53,208 nt of DNA. Origin: Chlamydiia bacterium (GTDB taxonomy: Bacteria > Chlamydiota > Chlamydiia > Chlamydiales > Parachlamydiaceae). Within the stretch, counting starts at the first letter, position 1; the number at the start of each line of letters is the position of its first letter. Positions 1,077 through 49,808 of the stretch are shown here, piece after piece. The translations under genes and the position numbers were made by a program. Under the pieces are notes generated by a model. It was not told where the DNA came from and did no database searches. It was given only the letters and a program-made list of their open reading frames with translations. The stretch spans positions 1 through 53,208 of the forward strand of contig JBBSJT010000004.1 of the NCBI GenBank assembly GCA_038257035.1, written 5' to 3'.

Positions 1077-1329
1077 ATACCGTTAGGGTGGCTCTTTTCA
1101 CCGCGAAGAGCGCGAAGAAGCGCAGCTTCGCTGCGAGAAGAATCGCGAAGAGGAGCGCTTACGCGCGATAGAAGAAGGGAAAATTTAAAAAGCATTACTA
1201 AATCCTAAAGATCTTAGCTATATTTTTATTTTTTCGCGCTTATTAAGCGCGCTTTCTTCGCGCTCCTTCCCGCAGCGAAGCTGCGCTTCTTCGCGTCCTT
1301 CGCGGTAAAAAGAGCCACCCTAACGGTAT
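1077..1329. repeat. Long inverted-repeat element, CGCGAAG family (A)
   Basis: ATACCGTTAGGGTGGCTCTTTTCACCGCGAAG... pairs with ...CTTCGCGGTAAAAAGAGCCACCCTAACGGTAT around an AT-rich loop. Confidence 0.9.
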
Positions 1330-1412
1330 AAAGAGCGTTAGCACCTCTTAATCCCCTATGTAGAACACTGTGCTCTCTGTGGTAAAAAAACTTTGGTAAA
1401 ACTAGCGCTCTA

Positions 1413-2111
1413 TTATTCGGTGTCGTCGAGCAAGAAACGGTAACCCACGCCACGCACAGTTTCGATAGCATCGAAATTGGGCCCAAGTTTCTTTCTTAAA
1501 GAAGCAATATGGACATCGATATTTCTATCAATTACAAAAGCATCGCTATTTTGAATATCGTCTAATAAGTGGTTTCTTGTTAAAACCTTACCTTTATTGA
1601 CAACTAATCGTTTTAAAATTCCAAATTCAGATAAAGTAAGTGGGATGCTTTTATCATTCTTTCTTAACAAATAACGATCTACTTCCAAAGCAAATGGCCC
1701 AAATTCAATGATTTTAGCTGATTTTTCCTGCGGTTCAGTTCCGCGTCTTAAAATAGCTCTGATTCTAGAAAAAAGAACTTTTGGCGAAAAAGGTTTAGTT
1801 ACATAGTCATCAGCTCCTAACTCAAGACCCAAAATTATATCAATTTCTTCGCCTTTTGCTGAAACCATCATAACAGGAATGTCTTTTAGCGCTTCGTTAC
1901 TCTTCATTTTTCGGCAAATATCAAGACCGCTTAGGCCGGGAAGCATAATATCAAGAATGACCATATCCGGCTTTTCCTTCTCAATCGTTCGGTAGCCGTT
2001 TAGTCCATCGACTTCTACAAAAATTTTATAACCTGAAATTTCGGCCTGTAATTTGATCAAAGCGGCTATATCTTCTTCATCTTCGACTAAGACAATTTTT
2101 GGCTTTTGCAT
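1413..2111 (-). CDS. OmpR/PhoB-family response regulator
   Basis: Receiver domain (LVEDE, LDIMLPG, GADDYVTKPF) plus winged helix (RNIDVHIASLRKKL, ETVRGVGYRF). Confidence 0.95.
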   Translation of the reverse strand: MQKPKIVLVEDEEDIAALIKLQAEISGYKIFVEVDGLNGYRTIEKEKPDMVILDIMLPGLSGLDICRKMKSNEALKDIPVMMVSAKGEEIDIILGLELGADDYVTKPFSPKVLFSRIRAILRRGTEPQEKSAKIIEFGPFALEVDRYLLRKNDKSIPLTLSEFGILKRLVVNKGKVLTRNHLLDDIQNSDAFVIDRNIDVHIASLRKKLGPNFDAIETVRGVGYRFLLDDTE

Positions 2112-2254
2112 AATTCACCTTTTTATAAAAAAAATAGTATATACTCACATCTTTATTAAAACATTTTTATTAATTAATTGCATCATATTTTTATTGATTC
2201 TTAATAAAAATTAATTTATCATCTAAGGAAAGGTTAATATCAGGCAAGTTTTTT

Positions 2255-4027
2255 ATGAAGTTTTACATTAAAGCGACAATCTTTACATCGTTCATTTTCA
2301 TTTGCTTGTCTTTGGGACTTTTTATTAAGAATTCGCAATCAAATCATAACCAAGTCTACCGTTTATTTGAGGCGGCCGATTACAAAATGGCACTTGCCTA
2401 CACAAATGAATTAGAAGAAAGCTCAAATTCAGCTAAATTCCCCCTTTATAAAGCCTATATATTAAGAGAACAAGATAAGCTAACTGAATCAACAGTGGCT
2501 TTAAAAAAAGCTCTAAGACGGCTCAAACCAAGCCAAAATGTAGACCTTGCAGAAGAAATTCATCTAAATTTATTGCTTAATAGTTTTTTAAGTCGCGATC
2601 TTGATCAGTTCCAAGAATCCTTAAGCAATTTTAGACCGTCACCCTCCAGTCTTAATCCTCATATCGATCTATTCTTTGCAATTGAGGCTTTTTTAAATCG
2701 AGACTACCAAAAAGCATTGCCTATTTTTCAAAAGCATCAATTACATCATTCTTCTCTTCATCACACTTACTTTTCTCCTTGGATGAAACTAGCATTTGAA
2801 AAAAATTTTAACAAAGAGTGGCTTAACAAGCATATTGTTCTCTGTCTCGTTGAAGAATCTTTGTATAGTCTTGCCAACAAAAAACTGGATGAGATGCTAG
2901 AGGATAATGAAGATGCTGACTCTGTCCATTTATTACGAAGTTTTTGCTATTTTAAGCAAAGCGAAGAGAATCCATGTGAAATAGCCCTGACTCTACATGC
3001 CTCTGCTCTTCATGAAATTGATGTTTTAAATCTTGATAAAATTCGAAACGACAAAGATTTAGCTGATGATTTAAAAAAAATGGTTTTAAGCTTGCAGACA
3101 CACATTTTAAGATTTGCAAAAACAGGATCCTTGGATGAATTTTCTCTCTACTTAAATTCCTTTCAATTTTTTGCAAATGAACAAGAAATTGAAATTTTAG
3201 CAAAGCTTCTTATAAAGATCATTAATGAATTGGAAAAAGACACTATTATAACTCTTTTACAAAAAATTGAGGGCAAAACACTTGTCAAGCTGCTTTACAT
3301 TAACAGACAACTTATGGAAGAGATGATTAAAAAAGGGGATTTGGAAAACCTCCATAAAACGATGCAGTTAATGAAGCCTTTCAACAACAAAGATTTTGAT
3401 TTTGTTGCTTCAATTAATCAAATTGCTACAGAATTTGCTCTGACTTGTCTTAAGGGTGCCAAAACAGAACTTGGAATTAGCCTTCTTAACTTTTTTAGCC
3501 AACATGAGACTGATCCGAAATTAAGACTTGGGCTTGCAAAAAAATTAGTAGATTTGGCAAAGTATTCATGGCTTCAAGAGAACTATGAGAAAGCAATTAA
3601 GATTTGGAAAATAGCAAAAGATTTCCCGAGCGATCAAGACAAACCTTTAATTTTAGAAAACCTTGAGCAAACGATTTTTTCAATCTATAAAAATGCAGAA
3701 AACTATGAACTTAGTATTCCTTGCTTTTATGCAGCAAAAGCCGTTAAAATTTTGGAGTTAAACCGCGTAACTCTGTGTAATCAGAAACAAAAAAACCGCA
3801 TCCTGGAAGATGCCACTTATTTTTATTCCAAGGGCCATAGCACCATCGCTCGTGAAAAGGCTTTATTCATCCTTGAAATTGATCCTGAAAATGAAGTTGC
3901 CAACCGCATCATTGGGCTGATCGCTTACGAAAATGGTAATTTTGAAAGAGCTTATGCCCATTTAGTTAAAATAAAGCAGCCCAATTTAAATATTTTAGAA
4001 ATCTTAAAACAGATAAAAAAAGAGTAA
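2255..4027 (+). CDS. Hypothetical membrane-anchored helical/TPR-like protein
   Basis: 590-aa ORF with N-terminal hydrophobic anchor and C-terminal TPR-like segment (ILEIDPENEVANRIIGLIAYENGNFERA). Confidence 0.65.
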   Translation: MKFYIKATIFTSFIFICLSLGLFIKNSQSNHNQVYRLFEAADYKMALAYTNELEESSNSAKFPLYKAYILREQDKLTESTVALKKALRRLKPSQNVDLAEEIHLNLLLNSFLSRDLDQFQESLSNFRPSPSSLNPHIDLFFAIEAFLNRDYQKALPIFQKHQLHHSSLHHTYFSPWMKLAFEKNFNKEWLNKHIVLCLVEESLYSLANKKLDEMLEDNEDADSVHLLRSFCYFKQSEENPCEIALTLHASALHEIDVLNLDKIRNDKDLADDLKKMVLSLQTHILRFAKTGSLDEFSLYLNSFQFFANEQEIEILAKLLIKIINELEKDTIITLLQKIEGKTLVKLLYINRQLMEEMIKKGDLENLHKTMQLMKPFNNKDFDFVASINQIATEFALTCLKGAKTELGISLLNFFSQHETDPKLRLGLAKKLVDLAKYSWLQENYEKAIKIWKIAKDFPSDQDKPLILENLEQTIFSIYKNAENYELSIPCFYAAKAVKILELNRVTLCNQKQKNRILEDATYFYSKGHSTIAREKALFILEIDPENEVANRIIGLIAYENGNFERAYAHLVKIKQPNLNILEILKQIKKE

Positions 4028-4033
4028 AACATT

Positions 4034-4954: not shown

Positions 4955-4974
4955 ACCTATTATAAGCTAAGTTT

Positions 4975-6500: not shown

Positions 6501-6692
6501 GGGATTTTTAAAGGACAAAAAGGACTAAAAGGACATAAAGGACTAAAAGGACATTTCCACCGTCTTGAAAGTGTATTCAAGGCGCTTTATAATAAATAAC
6601 TATTGTGATATGATCTATAAAGTTGTTTTTTGTCCTTTTCGTCCTTTTCGTCCTTTTCGTCCTTTTTGTCCTTTTTGTCCTTTTTGCCCTTT
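6501..6692. repeat. Long inverted-repeat element, AAGGAC 9-mer family (B)
   Basis: GGGATTTTTAAAGGAC(AAAAAGGAC/TAAAAGGAC)n ... (GTCCTTTT[C/T])n; homologous to the copies at 32338 and 49613. Confidence 0.9.
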
Positions 6693-6720
6693 TTATTGGT
6701 TAACTACTTGCTGTACAAGC

Positions 6721-7018
6721 TTAAAGGTATAACCCTCCCTTGTTGCAGCGTCTGCAAAATCAACTAAATTGTGATTGTTATTTTCAAGGTCTCTTAATTG
6801 AGTAAGAGGCAACTGGGGTAAATCAATCTCTTGAGGATCTGTTAACCCAATAGCAATTAAATCACATTTTTTAGCTATCAGAGTAGCTTGGTGAGTAAAA
6901 TCATCAGATATAAAATCTGAAATAAGAAAGTAAACTCCTGATTTCAACAATACATTTACAATGAAGTCCAAAACGTTGCCAATATCTGTTTTCAAATTTT
7001 TTGGAGTAAAGACAAGCA
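6721..7018 (-). pseudogene. Duplicated internal fragment of the DUF58 gene
   Basis: Colinear with 9322-9619 (offset 2601); 17 mismatches counted in about 298 bp; lacks both gene ends. Confidence 0.9.
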
Positions 7019-7190
7019 CTTCCTTTAATCATCTATGATACACTGGAATCTTTTATTTCTTTCGGGCAACTCATTTTAAATATTCCTATTTGTAGTAAGT
7101 TACTACCTTAAGATAGCTATGTGGATATGTTCAAGACTTATTTTCTTAGTAAAGTTTAAAACCGTTTAGGATTTGTTTCAATTTTTTTTC

Positions 7191-8053: not shown

Positions 8054-8141
8054 GGGAGTGTCCGAAATTTTGTGTAAATAAAATAGACTAAGAGTTAAAA
8101 TTCTTAGTCTATTTTATTTACTCAAAATTTCGGACACTCCC
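8054..8141. repeat. Near-perfect 40-bp-arm hairpin (MITE-like and/or bidirectional terminator)
   Basis: 8054-8093 is the reverse complement of 8102-8141 with one mismatch; 8-nt loop; lies between convergent genes. Confidence 0.85.
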
Positions 8142-8217
8142 CCCTTGAATTACTGAAGGTTGATATTATCTTGGCTTTAGTGCCGCGAGAGCGATCGTGC
8201 ATATCCTGTAAAAAAAA

Positions 8218-9021
8218 TTATTGATTAATGATTTGCTGAACGAAGGAATATGCCTTATCGATGTCGGCAGGGGTTGGTTTTTCTTTTCCAAATTTGACTA
8301 AGTCTGCTAGCACCAAAAGCTGCTTCAAAGAATCCTTTGGAAGATGCTGATCATCCTTAATGACCTCTAAAAATTCATTTGTTGTCTTAGCTTTTGTTTT
8401 AATGCCATACCCCTCTTCAAGATACTCCCGTAGTATATTTGTCAAAGTCTCATAACGTATTTTGGGGTCTTTTGTTAATTTTTCAAGGCTTTCATTTGCT
8501 TTAATTTTAGAAGTTTTTAAAGTGTCGATAACAGGTTTTTCTTTGGATTTTGAAAATTTAATTATCCCTAAAATGAAAAGACCTGCAAGGGTTGCCAGAA
8601 AAAGTTTATCCCAGGGGAAATTTCGTGTTTTTGCAATTGCTTTATTTCGCTCTATTTGACTTAAACTGTCTTGTTTGATTATTTGACTGCTTGTTTCATC
8701 TAGTTCGATTGGAATTTTTTTGGAAAAGTCAAGTAAGCCCGCTGGAGTACCCACAGAATCTGCATTTAACATTGTAGTGGCTAAACATAAGCAAATAAAA
8801 ATATATACTGGTTCGGCTGGAAAGTAAAAAGTTTCTGATTTTTTCAACGCAGAGACGCAGAGACGCAGAGACGCAGAGAAGCGCGCTAAAGCGCGAAAAG
8901 AACAAGAAAAGTCAACCGTTTTTCGTAGCTTAGAAAAGGATTTAATTTTTCGTTTTTCGCGCTTTAGCGCGCTTCTCTCTCGTCTCTTGCGTCTATTAAG
9001 TCTCTGCGTTGAAAAAATCAT
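8218..9021 (-). CDS. Hypothetical membrane protein of the MoxR/DUF58 (Bat-like) cluster; true start probably near 8770-8820
   Basis: TM helix then LREYLE...TTNEFL...LADLVKF, typical of genes downstream of DUF58; first ~60 codons are read-through of a repeat element. Confidence 0.65.
   Translation of the reverse strand: MIFSTQRLNRRKRRERSALKREKRKIKSFSKLRKTVDFSCSFRALARFSASLRLCVSALKKSETFYFPAEPVYIFICLCLATTMLNADSVGTPAGLLDFSKKIPIELDETSSQIIKQDSLSQIERNKAIAKTRNFPWDKLFLATLAGLFILGIIKFSKSKEKPVIDTLKTSKIKANESLEKLTKDPKIRYETLTNILREYLEEGYGIKTKAKTTNEFLEVIKDDQHLPKDSLKQLLVLADLVKFGKEKPTPADIDKAYSFVQQIINQ
8836..9020. repeat. Long inverted-repeat element, ACGCAGAG 8-mer family (C)
   Basis: TGATTTTTTCA(ACGCAGAG)x4 AAGCGCGCTAAAGCGCG ... 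CGCGCTTTAGCGCGCTTCTC ... GTCTCTGCGTTGAAAAAATCA. Confidence 0.9.
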
Positions 9022-9185
9022 ATGCGTTTAAATAAATCTCTTTATAGTATTATCTTAATTTTTTTAAATTTTTCATTTTGAAGTAGAACGTGTTATATTT
9101 CATTTTAAAATAAACTTTTATTTTTTTAACTTCTTCCACTCACTTGCCTTCTCTCTCTTGATCTCAGTGTCCTCTGTGGTAAAAA

Positions 9186-10070
9186 TCATTTTCGTTTATT
9201 CCCACGAATTTTAAAAAACTTCATGATCTCATGAAGATAGGGACGATCTGTGCGAATATCAATAAATCCTGCATTAATTTTTCCCATCAAAGCCTTAACC
9301 TTTTGTATGCGCTCTTTTGCTTTAAAGGTATAACCCTCCCTTGTTGCAGGGTCTGCAAAATCAACTAAATTGTGATTGTTATTTTCAAGACCACTTATTT
9401 GAGTGAGCGGAAACTGGGGTAAATCAATCTCTTGAGGATCTGTTAACCCAATAGCAATTAAATCACATTTTTTAGCTATCAGTGCAGCTTGGTGAGTAAA
9501 ATCATCAGATATAAAATCTGAAATAAGAAAATAAACTCCTGATTTCATCGATACATTTCCAATGAAGTCCAAAACGTTTCCAATATCCGTTTTCAAATTT
9601 TTTGGGGTAAAGACAAGCAGTTCCAAAATGATGGAAAGCACATGCCTGACGCCTTTTTTTGGTAAAATATATTTCTCAATTTGATCGGAAAATAAAATCA
9701 AACCGACTTTGTCATTATTTTTAATGGCTGAAAAAGCAATCGTTGCTGCAATTTCAGCAATGAGCTCTGATTTTAAACGAGGAGTACTTCCAAATAGTGT
9801 TGAGGCTGATACATCTACGACAAGTGTAATATTAATTTCCCGCTCTTCGCGAAAATTTTTAACAAAAGGCTGGTTCATGCGCGCAGTCACTTTCCAGTCG
9901 ATACTTCTGATCTCATCCCCCGGCTGATAAACCCTAACATCTTCAAATTCCATTCCTTTGCCCTTAAAGGCACTTCGATAGGCTCCTGCCAATAAATCTT
10001 TTGAAAGCTTGGTTGTTTCTATTTGAATTCTTCGGATTTTCTTTAAAATTTCAACGGAGACTGTACCCAT
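9186..10070 (-). CDS. DUF58 domain protein
   Basis: GMEFEDVRVYQPGDEIRSIDWKVTAR, VDVSAS, LISDF motifs. Confidence 0.95.
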   Translation of the reverse strand: MGTVSVEILKKIRRIQIETTKLSKDLLAGAYRSAFKGKGMEFEDVRVYQPGDEIRSIDWKVTARMNQPFVKNFREEREINITLVVDVSASTLFGSTPRLKSELIAEIAATIAFSAIKNNDKVGLILFSDQIEKYILPKKGVRHVLSIILELLVFTPKNLKTDIGNVLDFIGNVSMKSGVYFLISDFISDDFTHQAALIAKKCDLIAIGLTDPQEIDLPQFPLTQISGLENNNHNLVDFADPATREGYTFKAKERIQKVKALMGKINAGFIDIRTDRPYLHEIMKFFKIRGNKRK

Positions 10071-13744: not shown

Positions 13745-14338
13745 ATGAATTTATTAAGTAACTTAGTCGATTACACGCACCATGAGCTTGATAAAGCTTA
13801 TCAAAAGACACAACTTGAGATAAATAAAGCTTATTATAATGTTTTTGACGCAAGTTTATTTGAGGAAGGCCCAATAAAAAAGATGACTCCTTCAATTCTT
13901 GTGAATATTTTTTTAAATCTTAACCGTACTGAATGGCAAAAACAATTTGAAGTTTGCAAAAAATGGAAACAACTTGCTAACGATCCTTCTTGTTCCCTCT
14001 TATTTGATAAATTTTTATCAGAATTCAAAAAAGAAAACAAAAGCTTCTTTAACGAAAATTTTGAAAAAACTTTTAAATATGAACTTCAAGCGAATGAAAA
14101 TTTTTTATTCTCTGCAATTAAAAATCAAGTTTATTTCAAATTCGATAACTTAAAAGAACCGGAAATAGAACGTCTCAAAAACAAAAATTTTTACAGTAAA
14201 ATAGTTTCGGATGCTGGCACACTGAGTCTTGAAGCAATAGCAAAAGAGTATAAAAATCTAGGATTTTCTCAAGATATTATAGATGACGTTGAACGAGATC
14301 AAGCAACTCATTCGCTTAACATACCCGTTTTACTTTAA
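13745..14338 (+). CDS. F-box-like protein (putative effector)
   Basis: MTPSILVNIFLNLN...FEVCKKWKQLANDP matches the F-box pattern. Confidence 0.7.
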   Translation: MNLLSNLVDYTHHELDKAYQKTQLEINKAYYNVFDASLFEEGPIKKMTPSILVNIFLNLNRTEWQKQFEVCKKWKQLANDPSCSLLFDKFLSEFKKENKSFFNENFEKTFKYELQANENFLFSAIKNQVYFKFDNLKEPEIERLKNKNFYSKIVSDAGTLSLEAIAKEYKNLGFSQDIIDDVERDQATHSLNIPVLL

Positions 14339-14348: not shown

Positions 14349-14969
14349 GATATGCTGGTGCTACTTTAAAGTGAAAAATTTAAACCTCTACAACCTATAA
14401 ATCTTCGATTTTTTACAGGATATGCGTGATCGCTACACGGCAGGATCGCTAAAGCGCATACGAATTAAGCTAAGGCCTCAAGTTGCTTAAATAAAAGATC
14501 TTAATATTGATTATAAAGCAGGCCTACAGCCTGCGTTGTCACTCCTCACCATACCTAGGGCGGTGCCCTAGGCTATTACAACTCTGGCCTTCAGCCTGAA
14601 AGACGGTTTTTCAGGGCAAAGCCCTGGTTTATGAAAGCCTAGGGCAACGCCCTAGGTGTCAGGTTGTTATGGTCGCAGGCCTACAGCCTGCGTTGTCACT
14701 CCTCACCATACCTAGGGCGGTGCCCTAGGCTATTACAACTCAGGCCTTCAGCCTGAAAGACGGTTTTTCAGGGCAAAGCCCTGGTTTATGAAAGCCTAGG
14801 GCAACGCCCTAGGTGTCAGGTTGTTATGGTCGCAGGCTGAAGGCCTGCTTTATAATTACTCTTCTTAGCTTTAGCGATCCTGAATATCCTGAAAAAAAAA
14901 TCGAAAGGTGCTAAATTAATAGATATAATGGGATTGAACCTTTTCGTTTTCATGTAGCACCAGTATATC
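14349..14969. repeat. Nested inverted repeats (incl. ACAGGAT family F) enclosing a 2x157-bp REP/BIME-like tandem array
   Basis: IR pairs 14349-14364/14954-14969, 14404-14455/14868-14905, 14510-14535/14831-14856; tandem units start at 14518 and 14675. Confidence 0.9.
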
Positions 14970-14981
14970 CAAAAAAGTTAT

Positions 14982-16783: not shown

Positions 16784-17119
16784 TTTTTTACCGCGAAGCA
16801 ACCGTTATTGAGGGATTTTTTTACCGCGAAGAGCGCGAAGAAAGACGCGAAGGCGCGCGAAGAGAGCGCGCTTAAAAGCGCGATAACAAGAAGAGCATCA
16901 AAAAAATGATTTATCCCTTATTCCACTTTGCAATTGCAAAGTGGATGATTTATAAAATTGTTTTGTCAAAAACAATTTTATATATAAACATTCAAGGCTT
17001 TTGTACTGCCCCCTCTTAGGCGCGATAGCGCGCTTCTTCGCGTTTCTTCCCGCAGCGTAAGCTGCGTTTCTTCCCGCAGCGTAAGCTGCGCTTCTTCGCG
17101 CTCTTCGCGGTAAAAAAAA
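16784..17119. repeat. Long inverted-repeat element, CGCGAAG family (A)
   Basis: TTTTTTACCGCGAAGAGCGCGAAGAA ... TTCTTCGCGCTCTTCGCGGTAAAAAA; extra stub of a left arm at ~16784; tandem duplication of GTTTCTTCCCGCAGCGTAAGCTGC in the right arm. Confidence 0.9.
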
Positions 17120-22217: not shown

Positions 22218-23501
22218 ATGAATGATGGCAGTTTTACCATCAACCTGACTAAATTAAAAAATTTATCTTTTTTGATCTTTTATTTTTCCATGATTTTTGT
22301 TGGGCTAATGATGCCCTCAGATGGAAACCATGGTATCTTTACTCCCAAAAGTTTATCCTTTTTAGGAAGTATCTTTTTTTTTTCCATTTTAGTCTTATCA
22401 AGTAAAAAAATGAGTTTGTATCAGCTTAAAACTTGGATTTTTACAAGTTTCCTCATGAGTTTTTTACTTTTATGGCTTTTTATTGGGTCTACTGAGAATT
22501 TCTCTCATCCAACAGCTCCGCTTGATCAATTTAAAATTTTTCTGATTACCATTTCCTTTGTGATCATGACTCTTTACACATGTGATGCAGGCCTCATTAA
22601 AGATGAAAACTTAATCAAAACAATGATTTTTGTAAATTTTGGTTACTCCTGCCTAAAACTTATTCTCATCATTCTTCATGTCTTAAATTTTATCAATATG
22701 TTCGCACTTATGGAAACAATGGACATGCGTTTTATGAGCATGGAAATGGCATCAGGTTTTTCAAGGTTTCAAACCTCAGTTGATATCGTCACCCCCTTCT
22801 TTATTCTTTTTGTACTGCAATCTGATGCTTTAAACTTGAAATTTACCAATAGATTTAAATATTTTTATTGTTTTATCTCAACAATTTCAATCATCTTTAG
22901 TTTCTCAAGATTTTTAATGGCAGTCGCTGCTTGCAGCGCCTTTTTTTATTGGTTGACTCTTAATAAAAAAGCTCTTCTAAAAGGGATATTTATCTTTTTT
23001 GCTTTATTTGCAGCGTTTATTTTGATCATTGGTATTGATAATTTTCTGACAATTATTGAAAGACGATTTTTTAGTAATGACAATTACTATTCTGATCTAA
23101 CACGTACACAGCAAATTGATGCCTTAATGGAGCAATTTTATATAAGTCCCTATTTTGGAATGGGTCTTGGAGGCTATGTTAAAGATTTTCTTCGCGACAC
23201 TTCAATAGTATATTCTTATGAGGTACAATGGATTGCCTTTCTTATGCAATTTGGACTTTTTGGGATGATTTTTTTACTAGTCCCTGTTTTATTCATCTGC
23301 TTACAATTTTTAAAACCGCCCATCACACGGGTAAATCTTTCCTTTCTTGCCTTATTTATTGTTTGGTTAATGTCAGGATTTACCAATCCTTTTCTTATCT
23401 CCCTTGCAAGCGGGATTATTTATTCCATCTTCCTCTTAGCCGCGCGCCTTTTGAGGTATACACCTGTTATTTTTAACACAGAGAACACAGAGGAGCAATG
23501 A
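22218..23501 (+). CDS. O-antigen polymerase/ligase-like (Wzy/WaaL) membrane protein
   Basis: About 11-12 TM segments; FSFSR, PYFGMGLG and FLMQFGLFG motifs; located in a polysaccharide operon. Confidence 0.7.
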   Translation: MNDGSFTINLTKLKNLSFLIFYFSMIFVGLMMPSDGNHGIFTPKSLSFLGSIFFFSILVLSSKKMSLYQLKTWIFTSFLMSFLLLWLFIGSTENFSHPTAPLDQFKIFLITISFVIMTLYTCDAGLIKDENLIKTMIFVNFGYSCLKLILIILHVLNFINMFALMETMDMRFMSMEMASGFSRFQTSVDIVTPFFILFVLQSDALNLKFTNRFKYFYCFISTISIIFSFSRFLMAVAACSAFFYWLTLNKKALLKGIFIFFALFAAFILIIGIDNFLTIIERRFFSNDNYYSDLTRTQQIDALMEQFYISPYFGMGLGGYVKDFLRDTSIVYSYEVQWIAFLMQFGLFGMIFLLVPVLFICLQFLKPPITRVNLSFLALFIVWLMSGFTNPFLISLASGIIYSIFLLAARLLRYTPVIFNTENTEEQ

Positions 23502-23514
23502 GAGGATTGAGAGG
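23466..23514. repeat. Left arm of a CACAGAG family (E) inverted repeat; partner at 24627-24677
   Basis: TTTTTAACACAGAGAACACAGAGGAGCAATGAGAGGATTGAGAGG. Confidence 0.8.
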
Positions 23515-23533
23515 AAGGAGAGGATGAATTTAA

Positions 23534-23606
23534 TTTGTACCTTAGGCTTTAGCCTGAGCTTTTTCAACGGTTTTGAACAAACTCAGGCTAAAGCCTAAGG
23601 TACAAA
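23534..23606. repeat. REP-like inverted doublet (REPIN-like)
   Basis: TTTGTACCTTAGGCTTTAGCCTGAG and its exact reverse complement at 23582-23606; each arm is itself a small hairpin. Confidence 0.85.
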
Positions 23607-23646
23607 GTTAACATCCGGAATAATTCTTTCATATACGACCGTTAAC

Positions 23647-24438
23647 TCATTTTAGATCGCGTATGGCCACAACGCCGATATTGTAACGTGCTTGATCTTT
23701 ATGGATGATAAAACTTAGAGGCGGAAAATTACCGGTTATCGAAAAGTAATTATCTCTCCTTTCTAAACTATATGCGTAAGTTACTGAATCATGAAATAAG
23801 TGATTTTTTGATCTTAAATACTCATTAATAATGCAAATATTAATTTCAGATAGCGTTGGAATCCTGTAACCGTGTTGCAGATTTTCAACCAAAATTTCAT
23901 TCTGTGTGTAAGTTTTGTCAAGGCTATTGGGAATGATTTTTTTTGTCATGAATACCCAGCCTGATTTAATAGGTTTTGATATATCAGAAAAATTAAAACA
24001 ATTAGTACCATTTAAAAGTAAAGTTCCAACTTGTTCGTTTAATTGACGAAGATTCCAAATGCTTGACTCCTTTCCATTAATGCTTTCAGGAATCCATGCC
24101 AAAACATGATTATCCATGATTCTAGAATCTGGAAATACAGGGCAAGGACTTTTTAAAATTTCACTGATTTTATTAGGTAATAAATGAAATGCTTTTTTCA
24201 ATTCTTTGTCGGTGCAAAAATGATTCCAAACACTCGTGCAAAATCTATCAAAAATGATTTTCTTTGTCAGATCTATATCATTAGCCCATTGCTTACTTGC
24301 TAAAGAGAATTTTTGAAGCTCTTTAAAATCCAATTTAAGAAAAATCTCTCGGATCACATCATCCGGCAAAATCACTTTCTCTACACTCTCGACTTTTCCC
24401 CAATTCGTTCCAAAAGCCGTATCAAAACCCCTAATCAT
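23647..24438 (-). CDS. F-box-like protein with C-terminal domain paralogous to 38530-39420
   Basis: LPDDVIREIFLKLDFKELQKFSLASKQW; shared LP..I.EI.KS.C...P, H..WIP, G.W..M...I.P.S, P...E..ICI, IG....R motifs. Confidence 0.75.
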   Translation of the reverse strand: MIRGFDTAFGTNWGKVESVEKVILPDDVIREIFLKLDFKELQKFSLASKQWANDIDLTKKIIFDRFCTSVWNHFCTDKELKKAFHLLPNKISEILKSPCPVFPDSRIMDNHVLAWIPESINGKESSIWNLRQLNEQVGTLLLNGTNCFNFSDISKPIKSGWVFMTKKIIPNSLDKTYTQNEILVENLQHGYRIPTLSEINICIINEYLRSKNHLFHDSVTYAYSLERRDNYFSITGNFPPLSFIIHKDQARYNIGVVAIRDLK

Positions 24439-24469: not shown

Positions 24470-24603
24470 AGATTTTTTCAACGCAAAGAAGCTGCAGAAG
24501 ACGCAAAGGCGCAAAGATAAAAGGAACCCTTAGCTTACAAAAGCCTTTATTAAATTCTTTGCGCCTTTGCGTCTTTTGTAGCTTCTTTGCGTTGAAAAAA
24601 TCT
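24470..24603. repeat. Long inverted-repeat element, ACGCA(A/G)AG family (C)
   Basis: AGATTTTTTCAACGCAAAGAAGCTGCAGAAGACGCAAAGGCGCAAAGA ... TCTTTGCGCCTTTGCGTCTTTTGTAGCTTCTTTGCGTTGAAAAAATCT. Confidence 0.9.
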
Positions 24604-24626: not shown

Positions 24627-24677
24627 CCTCTCCCTTCTCTCATTGTTCCTCTGTGGTCTCTCGTGTTAAAAAATCAC
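24627..24677. repeat. Right arm of the CACAGAG family (E) inverted repeat
   Basis: CCTCTCCCTTCTCTCATTGTTCCTCTGTGGTCTCTCGTGTTAAAAAATCAC, reverse-complementary (imperfect) to 23466-23514. Confidence 0.8.
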
Positions 24678-28591: not shown

Positions 28592-28697
28592 TTTTTTACC
28601 AGTGAGTCAGTGAGAAAGACATGAGGACAGTGAGGGGTCTTGAATTCCTAACCCCTCACTGTCCTCATGTCTTTCTCACTGACTCACTGGTAAAAAA
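28592..28697. repeat. Long inverted-repeat element, CAGTGAG family (D)
   Basis: Perfect 47-bp arms 28592-28638 / 28651-28697 with a 12-nt loop. Confidence 0.95.
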
Positions 28698-28842
28698 ATA
28701 TTAATCGTACTCTTTTCAAATTTTATGGCAGAATATCACTCTTGTTGTTTTTTCTCGACTAAAAATTAAAGAATGATAAATTATGACTAGTAATTAAATT
28801 TAATAACATGTATAATAAGTATTTAATTAAAGATGGAATAAT

Positions 28843-30613: not shown

Positions 30614-30888
30614 GTGTTCACCACGAAGAACCCTTCGGCCATATCCTTCTAGTGATGCTTCTTTTACCGCGAAGACCGCGAAGGAAGACGCGAAGGCACG
30701 CGAAGAAGCGCAGCTTATGCTGCGAAGAGAAAAAGAAGAAAGAATTGAACATTTCGTTTTTCTTGTTTTTTCATCGCAGCATAAGCTGCGCTTCTTCGCG
30801 TGCCTTCGCGTCTTCCTTCGCGGTCTTCGCGGTAAAAAAATCAACATAAACTTTATAATAACACTCAATTTCTTCGTGGTGGAACCAC
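30614..30888. repeat. CGCGAAG family (A) element nested in a CCACGAAG outer inverted repeat
   Basis: Perfect 64-bp arms 30662-30725 / 30774-30837; outer pair TTCACCACGAAGAA (~30617) / TTCTTCGTGGTGGAA (~30870). Confidence 0.92.
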
Positions 30889-32311: not shown

Positions 32312-32534
32312 AGAAAAAAATTAAAAAACTTTTTAAGGCATTTTTAAGGACTAAAAGGACAAAAAGGACATCAAGGACTAAAAGGACATTTCCACCCTCT
32401 TGAAAGTATCTTCAGAGCACATTAACTTTTCCTTGAAGATTTATTCGAGACGGTGGTATAGTTGTCCCCATAATTAAGACCGTGCATTTTGTTCCTTTGT
32501 TGGTGTATAATCCATTGATTATTGGAGTATTACA

Positions 32535-32815
32535 TGGATAAAAAACACCAAATAAGATCGCCCAGTCTAAAAGCAAAGGTAGCAATTGAAGCTTTAAAGG
32601 GTGAGTTATCCTTAATTGAGATTGCTACTAAATATAATATTCACCCCAAACAGGTTGGAAGATGGCGTGATCAACTTATTGAAGAGAGTGATGAATTATT
32701 TATTCACAAAAGCAGTGTGAAAACTTCCAAGGATCCTGAAACTGATGAATTATTAAAAAAAATAGGTCAGCTGACTGTAGAAATTGATTTTCTAAAAAAA
32801 AAGCTTGGAAAATAG
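32535..32815 (+). CDS. IS3 transposase OrfA (HTH)
   Basis: KAKVAIEALKG...IATKYNIHPKQVGRW...LLKKIGQLTVEIDFLKK; A9G slippery run at 32794-32803. Confidence 0.9.
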
Positions 32816-32859
32816 AGTTATCTAAAAAAAAGAAGTTAATTGAACCTGATCATGAAAGC

Positions 32860-33642
32860 TTGAGTGTAAGAAAACAGTGCGAATTGCTAGGAATTAGCCG
32901 TTCGTCTTACTATAGAATTCCTAACCCTGAGACCGAACTAAATTTAAAGTTGATGAAAATTTTAGATGAACAGTACATGGAAGCCCCCTTTTTTGGAAGG
33001 GAAAAGCATACCGAATGGTTAAAAAGAAAGGGCTATAATGTTAACCACAAAAGGATTGGAAGGTTATTAAATAAAATGGGTATTCAAGCTATGGTACCAG
33101 GTCCAAATACAAGTAAAAAAAATCCAAGAAATCCCATATTTCCATATTTATTAAAAAATATGGAAATCAATAAACCCAATCAAGTTTGGGCAGCAGATAT
33201 AACATGGATCCCCACTAGTAAGGGGTATTTGTATTTAGTAGCAGTGATAGATTGGCATAGCAGGTACATTTTGAGCTGGTGTTTATCGAGAACAATGCAC
33301 TCGGATTTTTGCATAGAAGCATTAGAAAAAGCCTTAGAAATAGGAAAACCGGAAATATTTAACACAGACCAAGGAACGCAATTTACAGGCCATGAATTTA
33401 CAGAAGTTTTAAAGGCTAATGAAATAAAAATCAGCATGGATGGTAAAGGTAGATATCAAGATAACATAATAGTAGAAAGGCTTTGGAGGAGTGTTAAATA
33501 CGAAGAGGTCTATTTAAAGAATTACGAAACAGGTGAAGAAGCTTACGATAATCTAGAATGGTATATGAAGTTTTATAATGAAGAAAGAACTCACATGTCG
33601 TTGAAGTATCAGACACCTGCTGAAATATATTTTTCTGCTTAA
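32860..33642 (+). CDS. IS3 transposase OrfB (DDE), in the -1 frame of OrfA
   Basis: VWAADITWI, FNTDQGTQF, DNIIVERLWRSVKYE; frame open back to the A9G site, so an OrfAB fusion by -1 frameshift is likely. Confidence 0.93.
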   Translation: MSVRKQCELLGISRSSYYRIPNPETELNLKLMKILDEQYMEAPFFGREKHTEWLKRKGYNVNHKRIGRLLNKMGIQAMVPGPNTSKKNPRNPIFPYLLKNMEINKPNQVWAADITWIPTSKGYLYLVAVIDWHSRYILSWCLSRTMHSDFCIEALEKALEIGKPEIFNTDQGTQFTGHEFTEVLKANEIKISMDGKGRYQDNIIVERLWRSVKYEEVYLKNYETGEEAYDNLEWYMKFYNEERTHMSLKYQTPAEIYFSA

Positions 33643-33937
33643 ATTAAAAATTTAATTTTACGACCCTCCCCTAGGGGAGGGGGCTTATTGGACTTATATA
33701 AACTAACATTGCATTAACAAGGAACAAAACCTTAAGCAATTTTGGTCTTGACATTGGGGACAAGCATAGTGGACTCGTCCTTTTAGTCCTTTTTGTCCTT
33801 TCTGTCCTTTTAGTCCTTTAAAATCCCTCCTACTTTATTTTTTTTAAGATAATTGTTGAAAAGACGTGAAATTATCCTTTTTCGTAGAAAAATTTCCCCA
33901 TCAAGTGTATTATCTTCTTTTTACTTCAAGTCGTTCA

Positions 33938-36109: not shown

Positions 36110-36232
36110 GTTTCTGATTTTTTACCAGTGAGGCAGTGAGGAGCTACATGAGGACAGTGAGGGGTATGCTTGCAGAACTTCTCACTGACCTCATGTCTTT
36201 CTCACTGCCTCACTGGTAAAAAAATCAGAAAC
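36110..36232. repeat. Long inverted-repeat element, CAGTGAG family (D)
   Basis: GTTTCTGATTTTTTACCAGTGAGGCAGTGAG ... CTCACTGCCTCACTGGTAAAAAAATCAGAAAC. Confidence 0.92.
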
Positions 36233-37062: not shown

Positions 37063-37162
37063 TCATAAACAAATTTTTAATTCTTAACAAGCTCTTCTTA
37101 ATTTTAAGACCTCTACAATCCCTAACATCTTCGATTTTTTACAGGTCGTTTTATGTAATTTA

Positions 37163-39420: not shown

Positions 39421-39705
39421 TACCGCTGATGTTTGCATTTTTTTACCGCTGAGTTGCACTTTTTTTACAACCTCTAAAGGGGACTTTTTTACCGCGAAGA
39501 ACGCTAAGAAAGACGCGAAGGCACGCGAAGAAGCGCGCTAAAGCGTGAAGAAGATATTTTTTATAATACATATATGCTTTTTTCAAATGTAAATATTGCT
39601 CCTCTCCTCTCTTCGCGCGCAAGCTAAGCTTCTTCGCGTTTCTTCCGCAGCAAAGCTGCGCTTCTTCGCGCTCTTCGCGGTAAAAAAAGCAAACTAAACG
39701 GTATA
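39416..39705. repeat. Long inverted-repeat element, CGCGAAG family (A)
   Basis: Core TTTTTTACCGCGAAGAACGCTAAGAA (39485) ... TTCTTCGCGCTCTTCGCGGTAAAAAA (~39687); additional outer left stub ATACCG..GTTTGC.TTTTTTTACCGC. Confidence 0.88.
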
Positions 39706-39737
39706 AAAAATCAATAACTTCGTGGTTAAGCCCGCGT

Positions 39738-43750: not shown

Positions 43751-44608
43751 ATGCAGCTTTACGCACTCGACCAAAATTTAACCGTTATCCACGCAAAAAA
43801 TGCAAAAAAACATATGAGTTATCAATGTTTGGAATGCAAAAGTTTTGTGCGTCTACGAGGGGGAATTCATCGGCAAAATCATTTTTATCATGTTCATCAA
43901 ACTTCCCTCTGTAAGCAAAGCGGCAAAAGCATGGAACATTTGCAAGTTCAACTTTTCTTGCAAAAAGAGTTAAATTGTCAAGATTTGCACCTTGAAAAAC
44001 GCTTTAATGAAATTGGAAGGATTGCAGATGTTGTCTCATTTTCAAAAAAACTTGTTTTTGAAGTGCAATGCTCTCCCATTTCCTTAGAGGAAGTAAAGTC
44101 AAGGAACCTTGATTATCAAAGACTTGGATTATCTGTCATCTGGATTTTGCACGAAAAGAATTTCAATCAAACTAAAGTTTCTGCTGTAGAAGATTTTTTA
44201 CAATCAACACATCATTATTTTACCAATATAGATGCCAATGGGCTAGGATTTATTTATGATCAATTCTCTCTTTTTGATAAGGGCAAAAGAATATTTTCCT
44301 CAAAGCCATTTATTGTAGATGTGAATCAATTTTTTCAAAATGACTTCTATGTAAAAAACCAGCCCATACCAACCCCTCTTTTACAAAAAATAATTTCCCA
44401 GCCCTTCTTTTTTAAAGGCGATCTAGTTGACTATTGCAAATCAGAACAGTTTTCAGAAAACACTTTTGGTCAAGCACTTAGAATCCTTGAGTTAAGAAAA
44501 CCAAAAAAATTGACCCTTACACTGTTCTTTATACATCTTTTGAAAAGTTATATTATTAGGCCCTATAGGATCTTCCTCAATATCCTCCTCGAAAAAGCCA
44601 CTCTTTGA
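43751..44608 (+). CDS. CoiA-like nuclease family protein
   Basis: YQCLEC..V.LR.G....HFYH, EHL, RIADV, FEVQCSPIS, Y..LGL.VIWI. Confidence 0.8.
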   Translation: MQLYALDQNLTVIHAKNAKKHMSYQCLECKSFVRLRGGIHRQNHFYHVHQTSLCKQSGKSMEHLQVQLFLQKELNCQDLHLEKRFNEIGRIADVVSFSKKLVFEVQCSPISLEEVKSRNLDYQRLGLSVIWILHEKNFNQTKVSAVEDFLQSTHHYFTNIDANGLGFIYDQFSLFDKGKRIFSSKPFIVDVNQFFQNDFYVKNQPIPTPLLQKIISQPFFFKGDLVDYCKSEQFSENTFGQALRILELRKPKKLTLTLFFIHLLKSYIIRPYRIFLNILLEKATL

Positions 44609-44613: not shown

Positions 44614-44764
44614 ACGGTTTTTTTAAACAAGAGAGAGCAAGAGACGAGCAAAAGAAAATGAGAGGGGTATGAATTAACATTTGCCTTAGTGTACTTTATA
44701 ACCTTTCATCCTCTATCATTTTCCTCTCGTTCTTCCTCTGTGATCTTTGTGTTAAAAAAACCGT
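44614..44764. repeat. Degenerate long inverted-repeat element, family E
   Basis: ACGGTTTTTTTAAACAAGAGAG... / ...CCTCTGTGATCTTTGTGTTAAAAAAACCGT. Confidence 0.7.
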
Positions 44765-44917
44765 CATCCCTTCCAACATTCAAAAAAAGATTTGCATCAA
44801 AATTAGATTTTTAGTTACGGTCAAATTAAGGACACTTCTTATTACACTTGCTGTAAGCATCGCAATTATTCTTACCTATTGTTTTAAACATCTATTTTTC
44901 AAAAAGACGAGGGATCT

Positions 44918-45334
44918 ATGGTTTTTGAAATTTGTGCAGCAATAGCAACGTTCGTATTCGTAATTTTAGCATATTTTATTGTGCAGACATTAAAAGTGGT
45001 TCAAAAATCATTAAAAGAAGTCACTGTAACAATAAATAAACTAGAATCAGAAGTAGATGAACTAAAATCAAATGTTAATGAAATTTTAATCAATTCAAAT
45101 AAGACTATTGAAAAAATCAACAATAAAATCGACACGATCACTCCCGTCATCGATCTATTTTCACAAGTTGGAGAAGTAGGACAAGAGGCTCTTGGATTTT
45201 GTGAATCGAAAATGGACAATTATATTCATAGCAAAGAGAAAGCAAAATCAAATTGGGAAGACAAAATCTCGGATGTATCGGAAATAATAAATTTAGGTAT
45301 TAAGGTTTTTCAAAAAATTAAAAAAAGGAATTAA
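44918..45334 (+). CDS. DUF948 (YoxC-like) protein
   Basis: N-terminal TM (IATFVFVILAYFIVQTL) followed by a coiled coil. Confidence 0.75.
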   Translation: MVFEICAAIATFVFVILAYFIVQTLKVVQKSLKEVTVTINKLESEVDELKSNVNEILINSNKTIEKINNKIDTITPVIDLFSQVGEVGQEALGFCESKMDNYIHSKEKAKSNWEDKISDVSEIINLGIKVFQKIKKRN

Positions 45335-45337
45335 TTT

Positions 45338-46027: not shown

Positions 46028-46058
46028 GGTGCGACGGCTGAATTTCTAGAATAATAAT

Positions 46059-46104
46059 ATGCTTGGATTTCACATCTAATAATTAGTGAGATCCGGGCAT
46101 TTTC
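46059..46104 (+). terminator. Putative intrinsic terminator
   Basis: ATGCTTGGATTTCAC...GTGAGATCCGGGCAT stem (with G-T pairs) followed by T-run. Confidence 0.5.
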
Positions 46105-46124
46105 ATTTCAGCTAAACTATAAAC

Positions 46125-46246
46125 GTTTTTGATTTTTTACGGTTGAGTCGTAAAGAAAGTCGTGAGGTCGGTGAGAAGCAATGCATTCCTAACCCCTCAA
46201 TGTCCTCATGTTTTTCTCACTGCCTCATTGGTAAAAAAATCAGAAC
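46125..46246. repeat. Degenerate CAGTGAG family (D) element
   Basis: Right arm CCCCTCAATGTCCTCATGTTTTTCTCACTGCCTCATTGGTAAAAAAATCAGAA well conserved; left arm eroded; shares ATTCCTAACCCCTCA with the 28592 copy. Confidence 0.8.
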
Positions 46247-46275
46247 TGAAGAAAGCTAAAGGTTGGATCTATTGT

Positions 46276-48021: not shown

Positions 48022-48034
48022 TTGCTTCCATTTA

Positions 48035-48197
48035 GTTTTTTTTTAACCAAGAGAGAACACAAAGTTTACAGAGAGAGCAGGCAAGCAAGATAAGTTAAAT
48101 TACCAAATTTCAAAAACAATTTTTAAAGAATTTACAAAAAAATCTTTTTAGCCTCTCTTCTTCCTCTGTCAACTCTGGCACTCTCTTGTTTAAAAAC
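48035..48197. repeat. Degenerate long inverted-repeat element, family E
   Basis: GTTTTTTTTTAACCAAGAGAGAACACAAAGTTTACAGAG / CTCTGTCAACTCTGGCACTCTCTTGTTTAAAAAC. Confidence 0.7.
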
Positions 48198-48313
48198 GGT
48201 CTAGATACTAACGCCATATATCGGATTAAAAAAAATATTTGTCAATGGATTAAATGCCTGTAAATTTAACTTATCATTTGATATATGGGACTTAAATGAA
48301 TTAGAAGGAAATT

Positions 48314-49582
48314 ATGCAGCCAGAAAATAAACCTAATATTTTTAAACGCTTTTTTTTTCTAATCAAGAGTTTAATGTATTTTATTTGGGATTGCATAAAA
48401 AGTTTTCTTAATAATAATTGTTATGAAAAAGCTTCTGCCCTTTCATTTTATACCATGCTCTCGATTGTTCCTCTTTTAGCCGTCATATTTGGAATTTCTA
48501 AAGGTTTTGGGTTTGGCACATCGGTGGAATCACTTATTACTGATCGCTTTATACAACAACCTGAAATTGCAGATAAACTCATCGAGTTTGCACATTCCAA
48601 TCTTGAAAACATTAAAGGTGGCGTCATCACCGGGATCGGAAGTGCTTTCTTAATCTGGTCAGTAATCGGCCTTTTGAATAGTATTGAAACGATTTTTAAT
48701 ACTATTTTTAAAGTAACGGAGAGCAGAACTTATTCTGATAAAATTAAAGAATACCTTACCTTTCTAATTATCGCACCTCTAATTTTCGTCATATCCTCAG
48801 CCTTAAATATTTATTTGATAGGGCAAGTCTTGCAAATCTCAGGAAGCAATTTTATTGTTGAGGTATTAAGTTCTGTTGTTTTGTTTTTTTTAAATTTGTT
48901 TCCATTCTTTCTAATTTGGATTTTATTCACATTGATTTATATTTTTATTCCCAATAAAAAAATCCCCTATTATCAAGCCATTGTTGCAGGAGTCATTGCC
49001 GGAACGGCATTTCAAATTTGGCAATGGATATACATCCATTTACAACTCATTCTTTCAAGTTATGGCGCTATTTATGGAAGTTTTGCAGCCATTCCCTTAT
49101 TTATGCTCTACTTACAAATAAGCTGGTTGATTGTATTGACAGGTGCTATCATTGCAACAGAAATTGAAAAAGGATTTTTCAGAAGAGAAAAACACGCCTA
49201 TCCCCTCTCAATAAAGGTTGCAGCATTATTGATTGTCAATTATTGCATAGAGGCTTTTGTTAAGGGAAAACAACCCTATACTGCCTATCAACTTAGCAAC
49301 AAAGTTGGCATTACTTTGGAAGAATTACAACCTATAATAGACATCCTTTTAAAAAATAATATCTTACTTAAAGTAAATTTTTATAATGACTTTGGTTTTT
49401 CACCTGCACGATTGGCACACGAGATAACAATTAATCGCGTTTTAGATGCTATTGACAATAGTTATATTATACCAAGCACAATTTCAGATTCAGAAGATTT
49501 GCGTAAAATGGAAGGCATTTTAGTTGATCTGCATCAAGCGACCGTACCCATCGAGGACAAACCCTTGTATAAGGGAACTTAA
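48314..49582 (+). CDS. YihY/BrkB-family membrane protein
   Basis: ASALSFYTMLSIVP, IETIFNTIF, IYIFIPN, IYGSFAAIP...ISWLIVLTGA; C-terminal winged-helix-like region. Confidence 0.9.
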   Translation: MQPENKPNIFKRFFFLIKSLMYFIWDCIKSFLNNNCYEKASALSFYTMLSIVPLLAVIFGISKGFGFGTSVESLITDRFIQQPEIADKLIEFAHSNLENIKGGVITGIGSAFLIWSVIGLLNSIETIFNTIFKVTESRTYSDKIKEYLTFLIIAPLIFVISSALNIYLIGQVLQISGSNFIVEVLSSVVLFFLNLFPFFLIWILFTLIYIFIPNKKIPYYQAIVAGVIAGTAFQIWQWIYIHLQLILSSYGAIYGSFAAIPLFMLYLQISWLIVLTGAIIATEIEKGFFRREKHAYPLSIKVAALLIVNYCIEAFVKGKQPYTAYQLSNKVGITLEELQPIIDILLKNNILLKVNFYNDFGFSPARLAHEITINRVLDAIDNSYIIPSTISDSEDLRKMEGILVDLHQATVPIEDKPLYKGT

Positions 49583-49808
49583 GGGGCATAAGGGACATAA
49601 GGGGCTAAAGAAGGGATTTTAAAGGACATAAAGGACATAAAGGACAAAAAGGACTAAAAGGACATTTCCACCCTTTTGAAAATAGTTTCAGGATAAAGTT
49701 AATTTGGTTTAAAAATACTTTCAAAACGGTGGGCATGTCCTTTTTGTCCTTTAAGTCCTTTTTGTCCTTTTAGTCCTTTAAAATCCCCCCAAGTCCTTTT
49801 TATCCTTT
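49571..49808. repeat. Long inverted-repeat element, AAGGAC 9-mer family (B)
   Basis: Core GGGATTTTAAAGGAC (49613) ... GTCCTTTAAAATCCC (49787), inner stem CCACC..TTTGAAA / TTTCAAAACGGTGG, and outer AAGGG-repeat extension. Confidence 0.92.

Follow-up and report, generated by a model that had tools for sequence, protein, structure and literature searches.

Long tandem-unit hairpins between the genes of a Parachlamydiaceae bacterium: candidate gene-less derivatives of small gene-bearing cassettes

We analysed a stretch of 53,208 nucleotides (the window; NCBI GenBank assembly GCA_038257035.1, contig JBBSJT010000004.1, positions 1 to 53,208) from a Chlamydiia bacterium of the family Parachlamydiaceae, in which long palindromes with arms of short tandem units lie between protein genes. 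The window is contig C4 of a draft assembly of 2,366,241 bases in 210 contigs (36% G+C, 96% complete), and its gene content includes a 566-amino-acid sigma factor (1096 bits to NF004562), NqrA and F-box proteins, which indicate an amoeba-type chlamydial bacterium. A first-pass annotation of this DNA had listed 16 two-armed elements with periodic arms in six families (A to F), as well as five orphan arms. All 16 elements were found, their starts differing by no more than about 22 nt, and Tandem Repeats Finder recognized periods of 8-12 nt in the arms. On balance, the palindromes are probably gene-less, non-autonomous derivatives of small hairpin-bracketed cassettes, in which one small gene would stand between the two arms. 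For comparison, 120 genomes of the same order were used. Among the relatives, two genomes belong to the same genus (G001, 86% complete, and G002, 96% complete), within which DNA identity is only about 70%, and G020 (79% complete) belongs to the same family.

Family A, built of CGCGAAG units, is represented in the window by hairpins at 1077..1329, 16816..17119, 30653..30846 and 39485..39688. The first has convergent genes on both sides and the outer palindrome ATACCGTTAGGG; its 75-nt arms are 92% complementary (minimum free energy -157.8, z -20 relative to mononucleotide shuffles). The second lies in a divergent promoter gap (z -15), the third (arms 94% complementary, z -28) has 47 matches in its own genome, and the fourth is located 3' of dinG. 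Family B (AAGGAC units, 9-nt period) forms hairpins at 6505..6699 (z -13) and 49617..49783 (z -18), the latter with the conserved inner hairpin TTCCACC..GGTGG. A further B element consists of a left arm and inner hairpin (32341..32462) severed from the right arm (33777..33823) by an IS3-family insertion sequence (IS) on the forward strand (32463..33762), which was inserted between the inner hairpin and the right arm. This IS is 1300 bp long, has two open reading frames (ORFs) and the ends TGTCCCC...GGGGACA, and occurs as a single copy in the assembly. It was considered as an autonomous partner of the hairpins and rejected, being a single plain insertion outside the hairpin system.

The family C hairpin at 8839..9017 contains four ACGCAGAG units and the inner GC hairpin AGCGCGCTAAAGCGCGA, and is enclosed by a larger repeat with ATATACTGGT..CTAC ends. 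The second C hairpin (24473..24600) shares 98% identity over 47 nt of its right arm with an arm from G002. Family D (CAGTGAG units) is found at 28592..28698 (arms 100% complementary, z -21), at 36118..36224, 18 nt past a stop codon (z -15), and as a degraded copy at 46133..46239 (z -2.8). The E-type left arm at 23470..23528, with CACAGAG and GAGAGGA units, pairs with a right arm 1.1 kb away (24649..24673). The two arms enclose an F-box gene (23647-24438, reverse strand), another hairpin and the second C element. Degraded E-type hairpins lie at 44618..44760 (z -4.6) and, in a divergent gap, at 48036..48196 (z -4.1). Directly upstream of the former is a gene encoding a CoiA-like nuclease domain (43751-44608, forward strand), which is probably unrelated. 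The family F element (14409..14900) follows an F-box-like gene (13745-14338, forward strand) and has in its loop, at 14494-14872, a cluster of repetitive extragenic palindromes (REPs) consisting of two 157-bp units that belong to the REP-associated tyrosine transposase (RAYT) of contig C105. Three elements are thus interrupted: the B element starting near 32338, the F element at 14409 and the pair of E arms at 23470/24673.

Four of the five proposed orphan arms were recovered, namely a right arm of E/D type (CTCTCTGTGGTAAAAAAA) at 1373..1390, a family F right arm at 8199..8217, an E-type right arm at 9171..9185 and a left end of family F at 37133..37148; near 39717 there is no clear arm. The E-type orphan abuts the 3' end of a DUF58 gene (9186-10070, reverse strand). 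A 108-amino-acid fragment at 6693-7019 (reverse strand) duplicates the 3' part of this gene and abuts the right arm of a B element. The fragment and the intact gene thus each abut an arm, which places the break point of the duplication at the elements. Long palindromes outside the six families were seen at 8054-8141, 23529-23611 and 52950-53089, and the one at 23529-23611 contains GGCTTTAGCC-type REP-like hairpins.

The fold energy of ten of the 13 elements that were folded as RNA is far below that of the shuffled sequences (z -11 to -28), the remaining three being the degraded D and E copies mentioned above. All copies in the window lie between protein genes. The 18 gaps between ORFs that they occupy are convergent in nine cases, tandem in six and divergent in three. 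That the palindromes fill the intergenic space, as had been stated, is an overstatement: paired copies make up 1.56% of the genome.

A genome-wide count, which the first-pass annotation had proposed, showed that the families recur as dispersed copies. Ends with the T-run motif number 197 (A), 40 (B), 113 (C), 78 (D), 36 (E) and 94 (F), and paired elements 87, 13, 47, 31, 3 and 29, respectively. Paired-copy statistics were computed on 208 pairs of less than 700 bp. In 207 of these the purine-rich arm comes first, as had been claimed from the window. A perfect palindrome reads identically on both strands, so this order is a real property and does not depend on the choice of strand. The share of paired copies inside ORFs of at least 120 amino acids is 6.9%, compared to 83% for random stretches. 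A consensus of 110-260 nt, with non-periodic parts, inner GC hairpins and shared GATTTTTT(A)C ends, characterizes each family; one inner GC hairpin is common to families A and C, and in D and F the conserved part includes the loop. Unit numbers vary among copies and between the two arms of a single copy. Nesting occurs as well: a C copy lies inside an A loop, and 13 of 194 elements are located inside an outer inverted repeat, compared to 2 of 194 when the flanks were re-paired. Changes on both sides of a pair that keep Watson-Crick pairing were more numerous than in all 200 permutations for family D (106 vs 74), F (88 vs 49), C (138 vs 105) and A (261 vs 205), an excess to which shared descent of subfamilies can add; for family B they did not exceed the permutations.

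Two side observations concern other palindromes. Some C, D and F hairpins are enclosed, at a distance of about 26-46 nt, by another palindromic layer whose ends resemble ATATACTGGTKCTACTTGAAAG (for example contig C24, 17800-18130; contig C8, 6690-6900; window, 14350-14975 and 8790-9110), giving onion-like nests. A pyrimidine-first hairpin with GTGCCC units at 1491-1741 of contig C47 has the type of arm that brackets PF05635 genes in relatives.

The variable unit numbers, together with the occurrence of A-type unit arrays on their own in other phyla, would be expected if short-motif slippage and inverted duplication had produced the arms on the spot, as in arrays of short tandemly repeated repetitive sequences (STRRs), with no dispersal of copies. 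We give this origin very little chance. It is contradicted as the sole origin by the shared consensus of 110-260 nt with its non-periodic segments, inner hairpins and loops, and by an identical deletion junction at 29 places in G020 (see below); slippage may still change the number of units.

The first-pass annotation had suggested that similar periodic runs flank GxxExxY and four-helix-bundle genes in other bacteria and had seen no such gene in the window. Both points held: the window has neither gene, and the link was found within this genome for families A and C and within the order for B, D/E and F. Two GxxExxY genes (PF13366/TIGR04256) are present in the genome, both outside the window, with scores of 138.4 and 141.3 bits for TIGR04256 (cut-off 35) and 138.9 and 137.1 bits for PF13366. 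The first of them lies inside an A copy. This copy (contig C7, 926-1588) encloses the gene at 1100-1507 and is the only one of the 87 A copies that spans more than 400 bp. On contig C17, the second gene has a degenerate C arm before it and a complete C hairpin after it. The proteins of the A and C cassettes are 46% identical. A single PF05635 gene (contig C166, 521-802, reverse strand) was also found, between GGAATTT-type inverted arms on a 3-kb contig; its neighbours are rimM-like and methyltransferase-like, and the contig may be non-chlamydial.

Residues D76, E86 and K88 of the GxxExxY protein are invariant in 26 sequences, as are G32, G34, E37 and Y40. Its predicted structure (predicted local distance difference test score 91.6) has a restriction-endonuclease-like fold. 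The best fold matches in PDB are all PD-(D/E)XK nucleases (BpuSI, 3ijm, Cas4, SwaI, BglII and Hjc; Z 6-7.7), and a sequence search of PDB gave no match at E ≤1. The predicted model thus fits an active PD-(D/E)XK nuclease and nothing more specific.

To see how general the association is, GxxExxY genes were searched in the order and found in 41 of the 120 genomes. Of 29 loci examined, four were at contig ends and 25 could be evaluated. The gene is flanked by purine-first tandem-unit arms at 13 of the latter, with CACAGAG, CGCAGAG, ACGCARAG, CACAAAG or CGCGAAG units, and by other inverted repeats at four. In a tree of 26 proteins, clades with support of 100/100 match the arm units and mix host families. 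The arm pattern CCRCAGAGNNCRCAGAG occurs in 39 of 121 genomes (reversed control, 0). Arms and gene are found together in 31 genomes, arms only in eight, gene only in ten and neither in 71 (odds ratio 27.5, p 5e-13, with related genomes that are not independent). D-, B- and F-like arms are found in several other genomes, and every genome with more than a handful of matches has a GxxExxY gene except G102, where four same-strand B-like matches were taken as a coding repeat.

For families F and B, which have no gene-bearing copy in the own genome, such copies exist in relatives. In the near-complete G119, an intact GxxExxY gene from a separate clade stands between F arms, and about 125 empty F hairpins are present; C-like and E-like cassettes in the same genome likewise carry the clade that matches their arms. 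In G044 a broken GxxExxY gene lies between F arms. B-type arms are associated with the other gene: they bracket a 182-amino-acid PF05635-like gene in G068, flank a PF05635-like match in G044 and lie directly beside one in G072. PF05635 is present in 22 of the 120 genomes, and 22 of 29 PF05635 loci have flanking inverted repeats scoring at least 16, about 19 of them visibly tandem-unit arms. Since many of these arms have the pyrimidine-rich side first, the purine-first order does not hold generally at PF05635 loci. At one locus in G068 (contig C1, 212750-213700), F-type arm matches stand on both sides of a two-gene pair whose second protein is HicB-like by eye; cargo other than the nuclease may thus occur between F-type arms.

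Beyond the order, an exact 23-mer of the A-type arm was found among 185,579 species on 38 contigs from many phyla. About six of these represent one conserved coding gene and most others are lone arrays of a T-run and CGCGAAG units 5' of host genes. No GxxExxY gene was found within 700 nt of these matches and a partner arm was present at only four. The exact A-type start, consisting of a T-run, ACCGCGAAG and another two CGCGAAG units, occurs by itself 5' of ordinary genes from Desulfobacterota, Verrucomicrobiota, Acidobacteriota, Thiobacillus and others, and in one Desulfomicrobiaceae metagenome-assembled genome on seven contigs. These matches suggest that the A-type unit is widespread across phyla; they do not imply cassettes there.

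The first-pass annotation had pointed out that ancient fixed terminators would show no presence/absence variation between relatives. Such variation exists between this genome and those of its genus. Family A has no match in G001 and G002 and weak matches in two of 38 other relatives. Three matching gaps in G002 lack the A, D and B-plus-IS elements, among them the counterparts of the D hairpin at 36118..36224 and the A hairpin at 39485..39688. No GxxExxY match was found in G001, and G002 has two small fragments. Within the own genome, paralogous sites without an element were looked for, and nothing but shorter variants of the larger C-bearing repeat turned up, and on soil-metagenome contigs all joints were explained by other copies of the same families, giving no pair of filled and empty alleles.

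These data bear on the proposal that the hairpins are host-selected structural or regulatory sites that are now immobile, either arrays bound by nucleoid proteins or regulators, or RNA stems with a part in protecting or processing the ends of transcripts. Such a role would suit the strictly intergenic placement, the nine of 18 occupied gaps between convergent genes, pairing that is kept better than independent change predicts, and the lone A-type arrays 5' of ordinary genes in other phyla. There is also a precedent: paired octamer and heptamer sites in Geobacter metallireducens are read as sites of global regulators in the available text of their description (PMC2700814). Against it stand the lack of family A in both same-genus genomes, the three orthologous gaps without elements, the nested insertions and the single deletion form at 29 places in G020. 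In addition, an A-run follows the stem on both strands, which excludes an intrinsic terminator. We regard an origin as host sites as improbable.

In G020 an element is found with and without its gene. The full form, of 630 bp, has CGCGAAG arms inside its terminal inverted repeats, and its only ORF is a GxxExxY gene for a 130-amino-acid nuclease that is 86% identical to the product of the A-cassette gene. In the short copies, a 300-bp deletion form, the left arm is joined directly to the last third of the gene, and the same junction is found at 29 places (control, 0). The empty form in G020 therefore arose by deletion and then multiplied. Action in trans, which had been proposed for the window elements, is inferred in the own genome and shown only in G020, by the multiplied deletion form. 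Duplications were examined at 21 loci, nine of which have both outer ends. Direct repeats of 7-10 bp were found just outside the ends of five of these nine copies, the full element included (re-paired controls, 1%). The earlier statement that there are no target duplications thus holds for the own genome, and fails for the G020 relative of the A element, which has duplications of about 8 bp.

Two other genomes, G132 and G110, have the GxxExxY gene as part of an IS5-family element that is flanked by 9-bp duplications. This element (1564 bp; G132 contig C4, 1604169-1607516, positions 356-1919; also in G110) has CACAGAG/CACTGAG arms just inside its terminal repeats. Fourteen loci were fetched, 13 with both ends, and equal search scores indicate about 16-18 copies per genome. 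In G035, GxxExxY copies lie beside the end of an IS5-like transposase gene. Multi-copy GxxExxY genes were considered as proof of a cassette's own mobility and rejected as such, since the copies in G132, G110 and G035 ride on IS5-family elements.

The main rival explanation draws support from these loci: the cassettes would be passengers, an unlinked transposase (IS5-like or other, elsewhere or lost) would move the units that enclose them, and the nuclease would serve another use such as defence, addiction or processing of RNA or DNA. Repeated insertion sequences are often left unassembled in draft genomes. The position of arms and gene just inside IS5-family terminal repeats with 9-bp duplications, seen in at least 14 copies checked, and the abutting transposase end in G035 both point this way. 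So does G020, where the terminal repeats lie outside the arms and, together with duplications of 8 bp, form the usual signature of staggered cuts by DDE enzymes. Cargo also varies, with F-type arms around the HicB-like pair in G068 and similar arms around PF05635 genes. On the other hand, the 76 G020-type ends, as read from their table in a 79%-complete genome, have at most 754 bp between the two ends of a pair, and accordingly no transposase gene was seen there. The families of the own genome have neither G020-type ends nor duplications, and nuclease clade and arm unit are coupled across host families. We consider a passenger role unlikely, yet a prospect to be taken seriously.

REPINs (REP doublets that form hairpins), moved by the genome's RAYT transposases of the Y1 HUH type, were weighed as another source. 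The genome has nine Y1_Tnp matches at seven loci (C29:9113-9457, C119:363-704, C105:2280-2621, C7:10608-10945, C25:9991-10328, C48:13969-14277 and C68:12300-12539), two of which are broken by a stop or frame change, and REPINs are likewise gene-less hairpin doublets without target duplications. The seven loci, however, each have a GC-rich REP of their own on the flanks and none has A-F arms there; such arms bracket GxxExxY or PF05635 genes instead. This source is thus very improbable.

The derivation of the window palindromes from gene-bearing cassettes, which we favour, rests on direct observations: dispersed families, gene-bearing and empty copies of one family, cognate pairs of arm type and nuclease clade, and a multiplied deletion form in a relative. 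A full cassette would start with a T-run and a purine-rich arm made of tandem 7-9-nt units, continue with a single small gene, and close with the complementary arm and an A-run. In the A, C, D/E and F cassettes the gene would encode a GxxExxY PD-(D/E)XK nuclease of about 130 amino acids with a clade-specific unit sequence, and in the B cassette a divergent PF05635 four-helix-bundle protein. The resident nuclease may recognize the tandem units of its own arm type and start the copying of full and empty elements in trans, with a preference for landing in neutral intergenic DNA or at the centre of other palindromes. A transcript of either strand would read U-run, stem, A-run, the reverse of an intrinsic terminator, and could form a long double-stranded stem while transcription runs on. 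By analogy with rRNA intervening sequences, this stem would be a likely substrate of ribonuclease III (RNase III), for which the genome has a gene. The earlier view of non-autonomous members of one system is correct as to the gene-less copies; as to a single system it is not, with at least four arm types that each have their own nuclease clade and, in addition, a PF05635-linked type.

Several results weigh against this derivation. The 96%-complete assembly contains no cognate gene for D, F and B, and D and F copies look well conserved; own loops searched with the A-type protein yielded no nuclease-gene remnants at E <0.5. At eight of the 25 evaluable GxxExxY loci no arms were detected by an ungapped test, two of which later proved armed, inside the IS5-family element, and the eight arms-only genomes include three (G048, G123 and G127) with 26-42 matches each. 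In the own genome no direct repeat beyond chance was found at the elements, and none of 24 A copies with both outer motifs has a duplication of 5 bp or more. Terminal repeats of the G020 type gave no match there, compared to two for the control; the insertion mode in G020 may therefore belong to another layer. That genome is only 79% complete. The GxxExxY copies of G132, G110 and G035 are carried by or lie beside IS5-family sequences. With respect to the enzyme, the fold matches of the predicted model are generic and Foldseek gave no match at E ≤0.001. The match of arm to clade is also expected from simple co-inheritance of a cassette. The cassette nuclease is the favoured candidate for the moving enzyme.

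A further-reaching proposal is that the GxxExxY protein of about 130 amino acids is the mobility enzyme of a class of hairpin elements found across phyla, a novel transposase or homing enzyme that would read the tandem 7-9-nt units of its own arm type, cut at the folded or cruciform element and drive the copying of full and empty forms. We put this forward tentatively, as a possibility with the weight of expectation against it. If it is true, empty copies would account for the unexplained tandem-unit palindromes of many bacterial genomes and of rRNA intervening sequences. Tandem-unit palindromes between genes have been reported for decades as Geobacter 'regulator sites', STRR-like repeats or stems of rRNA intervening sequences and have gone unexplained; here empty hairpins are tied to a defined small gene within one organism, which makes the question accessible to ordinary cutting, binding and transposition assays. 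Should the nuclease move the elements, they would be mobile DNA of a new type; otherwise the cassettes would be widespread passengers whose role calls for explanation. Either way, about 280 such hairpins would shape intergenic RNA structure and sit at points of rearrangement.

Comparison with known systems shows partial likeness to several of them. As the first-pass annotation had held, the elements are neither CRISPR arrays nor GTAG-type REPs: the copies form inverted pairs scattered across 210 contigs, unlike constant-length direct repeats with unique spacers between them, and the RAYT loci carry other REPs. Rfam at gathering thresholds gave no match in the window, rRNA included. The REP/REPIN-RAYT systems of Pseudomonas and E. 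coli resemble the present one in that hundreds of empty intergenic hairpin doublets, without target duplication in the own genome, accompany one or a few gene-bearing copies, and each gene clade has its own repeat type. They differ in the gene, which here encodes a PD-(D/E)XK nuclease and there a Y1 HUH enzyme (PF01797), and in the long tandem-unit arms of the present elements.

Intervening sequences of 23S rRNA (with an S23p/PF05635 ORF; in helix 45 of Coxiella burnetii, as far as the available text of PMC4990558 goes) likewise have a small gene or nothing between complementary ends that form a long stem. According to the same text, this stem is cut by RNase III (PMC4990558). A sporadic distribution that points to horizontal transfer is a further shared feature. 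The PF05635-like gene enclosed by B-type arms in relatives adds to the likeness. The elements described here, in contrast, lie between protein genes and not in helix 9, 25 or 45 of 23S rRNA, are mostly empty, have arms of tandem 7-9-nt units, form several families per genome and mostly carry GxxExxY as their gene.

Miniature inverted-repeat transposable elements (the Correia elements of Neisseria are an example) that arise from insertion sequences by internal deletion resemble the situation in G020, with a 300-bp deletion form of a 630-bp element, terminal inverted repeats and duplications of about 8 bp. The full elements found, however, encode only GxxExxY and no known transposase, and the copies in the own genome lack duplications; G020 is 79% complete, and in G132 and G110 the arms lie within an IS5-family element. 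STRR heptamers of heterocystous cyanobacteria consist of short tandem 7-nt units and are intergenic and present in many copies. The TAACTGA repeats of Beggiatoaceae are similarly described, in the available text, as tandem 7-nt units that are intergenic with many copies per genome (PMC4679880). Both are mainly direct arrays, whereas here two inverted arrays make up one element with T-run and A-run ends, and more than one short unit is conserved, namely ends and inner hairpins, joined in D and F by the loop.

The class 1-4 sites and heptanucleotide elements of Geobacter metallireducens share variably spaced pairs on opposite strands, each site with four to five tandem 7-8-nt units. They occur in multiple intergenic copies, and for one class a resemblance to sequences of many genomes is reported (PMC2700814). 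In the available text of that report they are read as protein-binding sites, have other unit sequences and are given no link to a small gene (PMC2700814). Pfam PF13366 is listed with function unknown and in mixed clades in the available text of PMC3424549, and our literature search found no description that links GxxExxY genes to such hairpins. New in the present analysis are the gene-bearing and empty copies within one genome, the match of nuclease clade to arm unit, the co-occurrence of arms and gene across the order, and the deletion derivative with its duplications.

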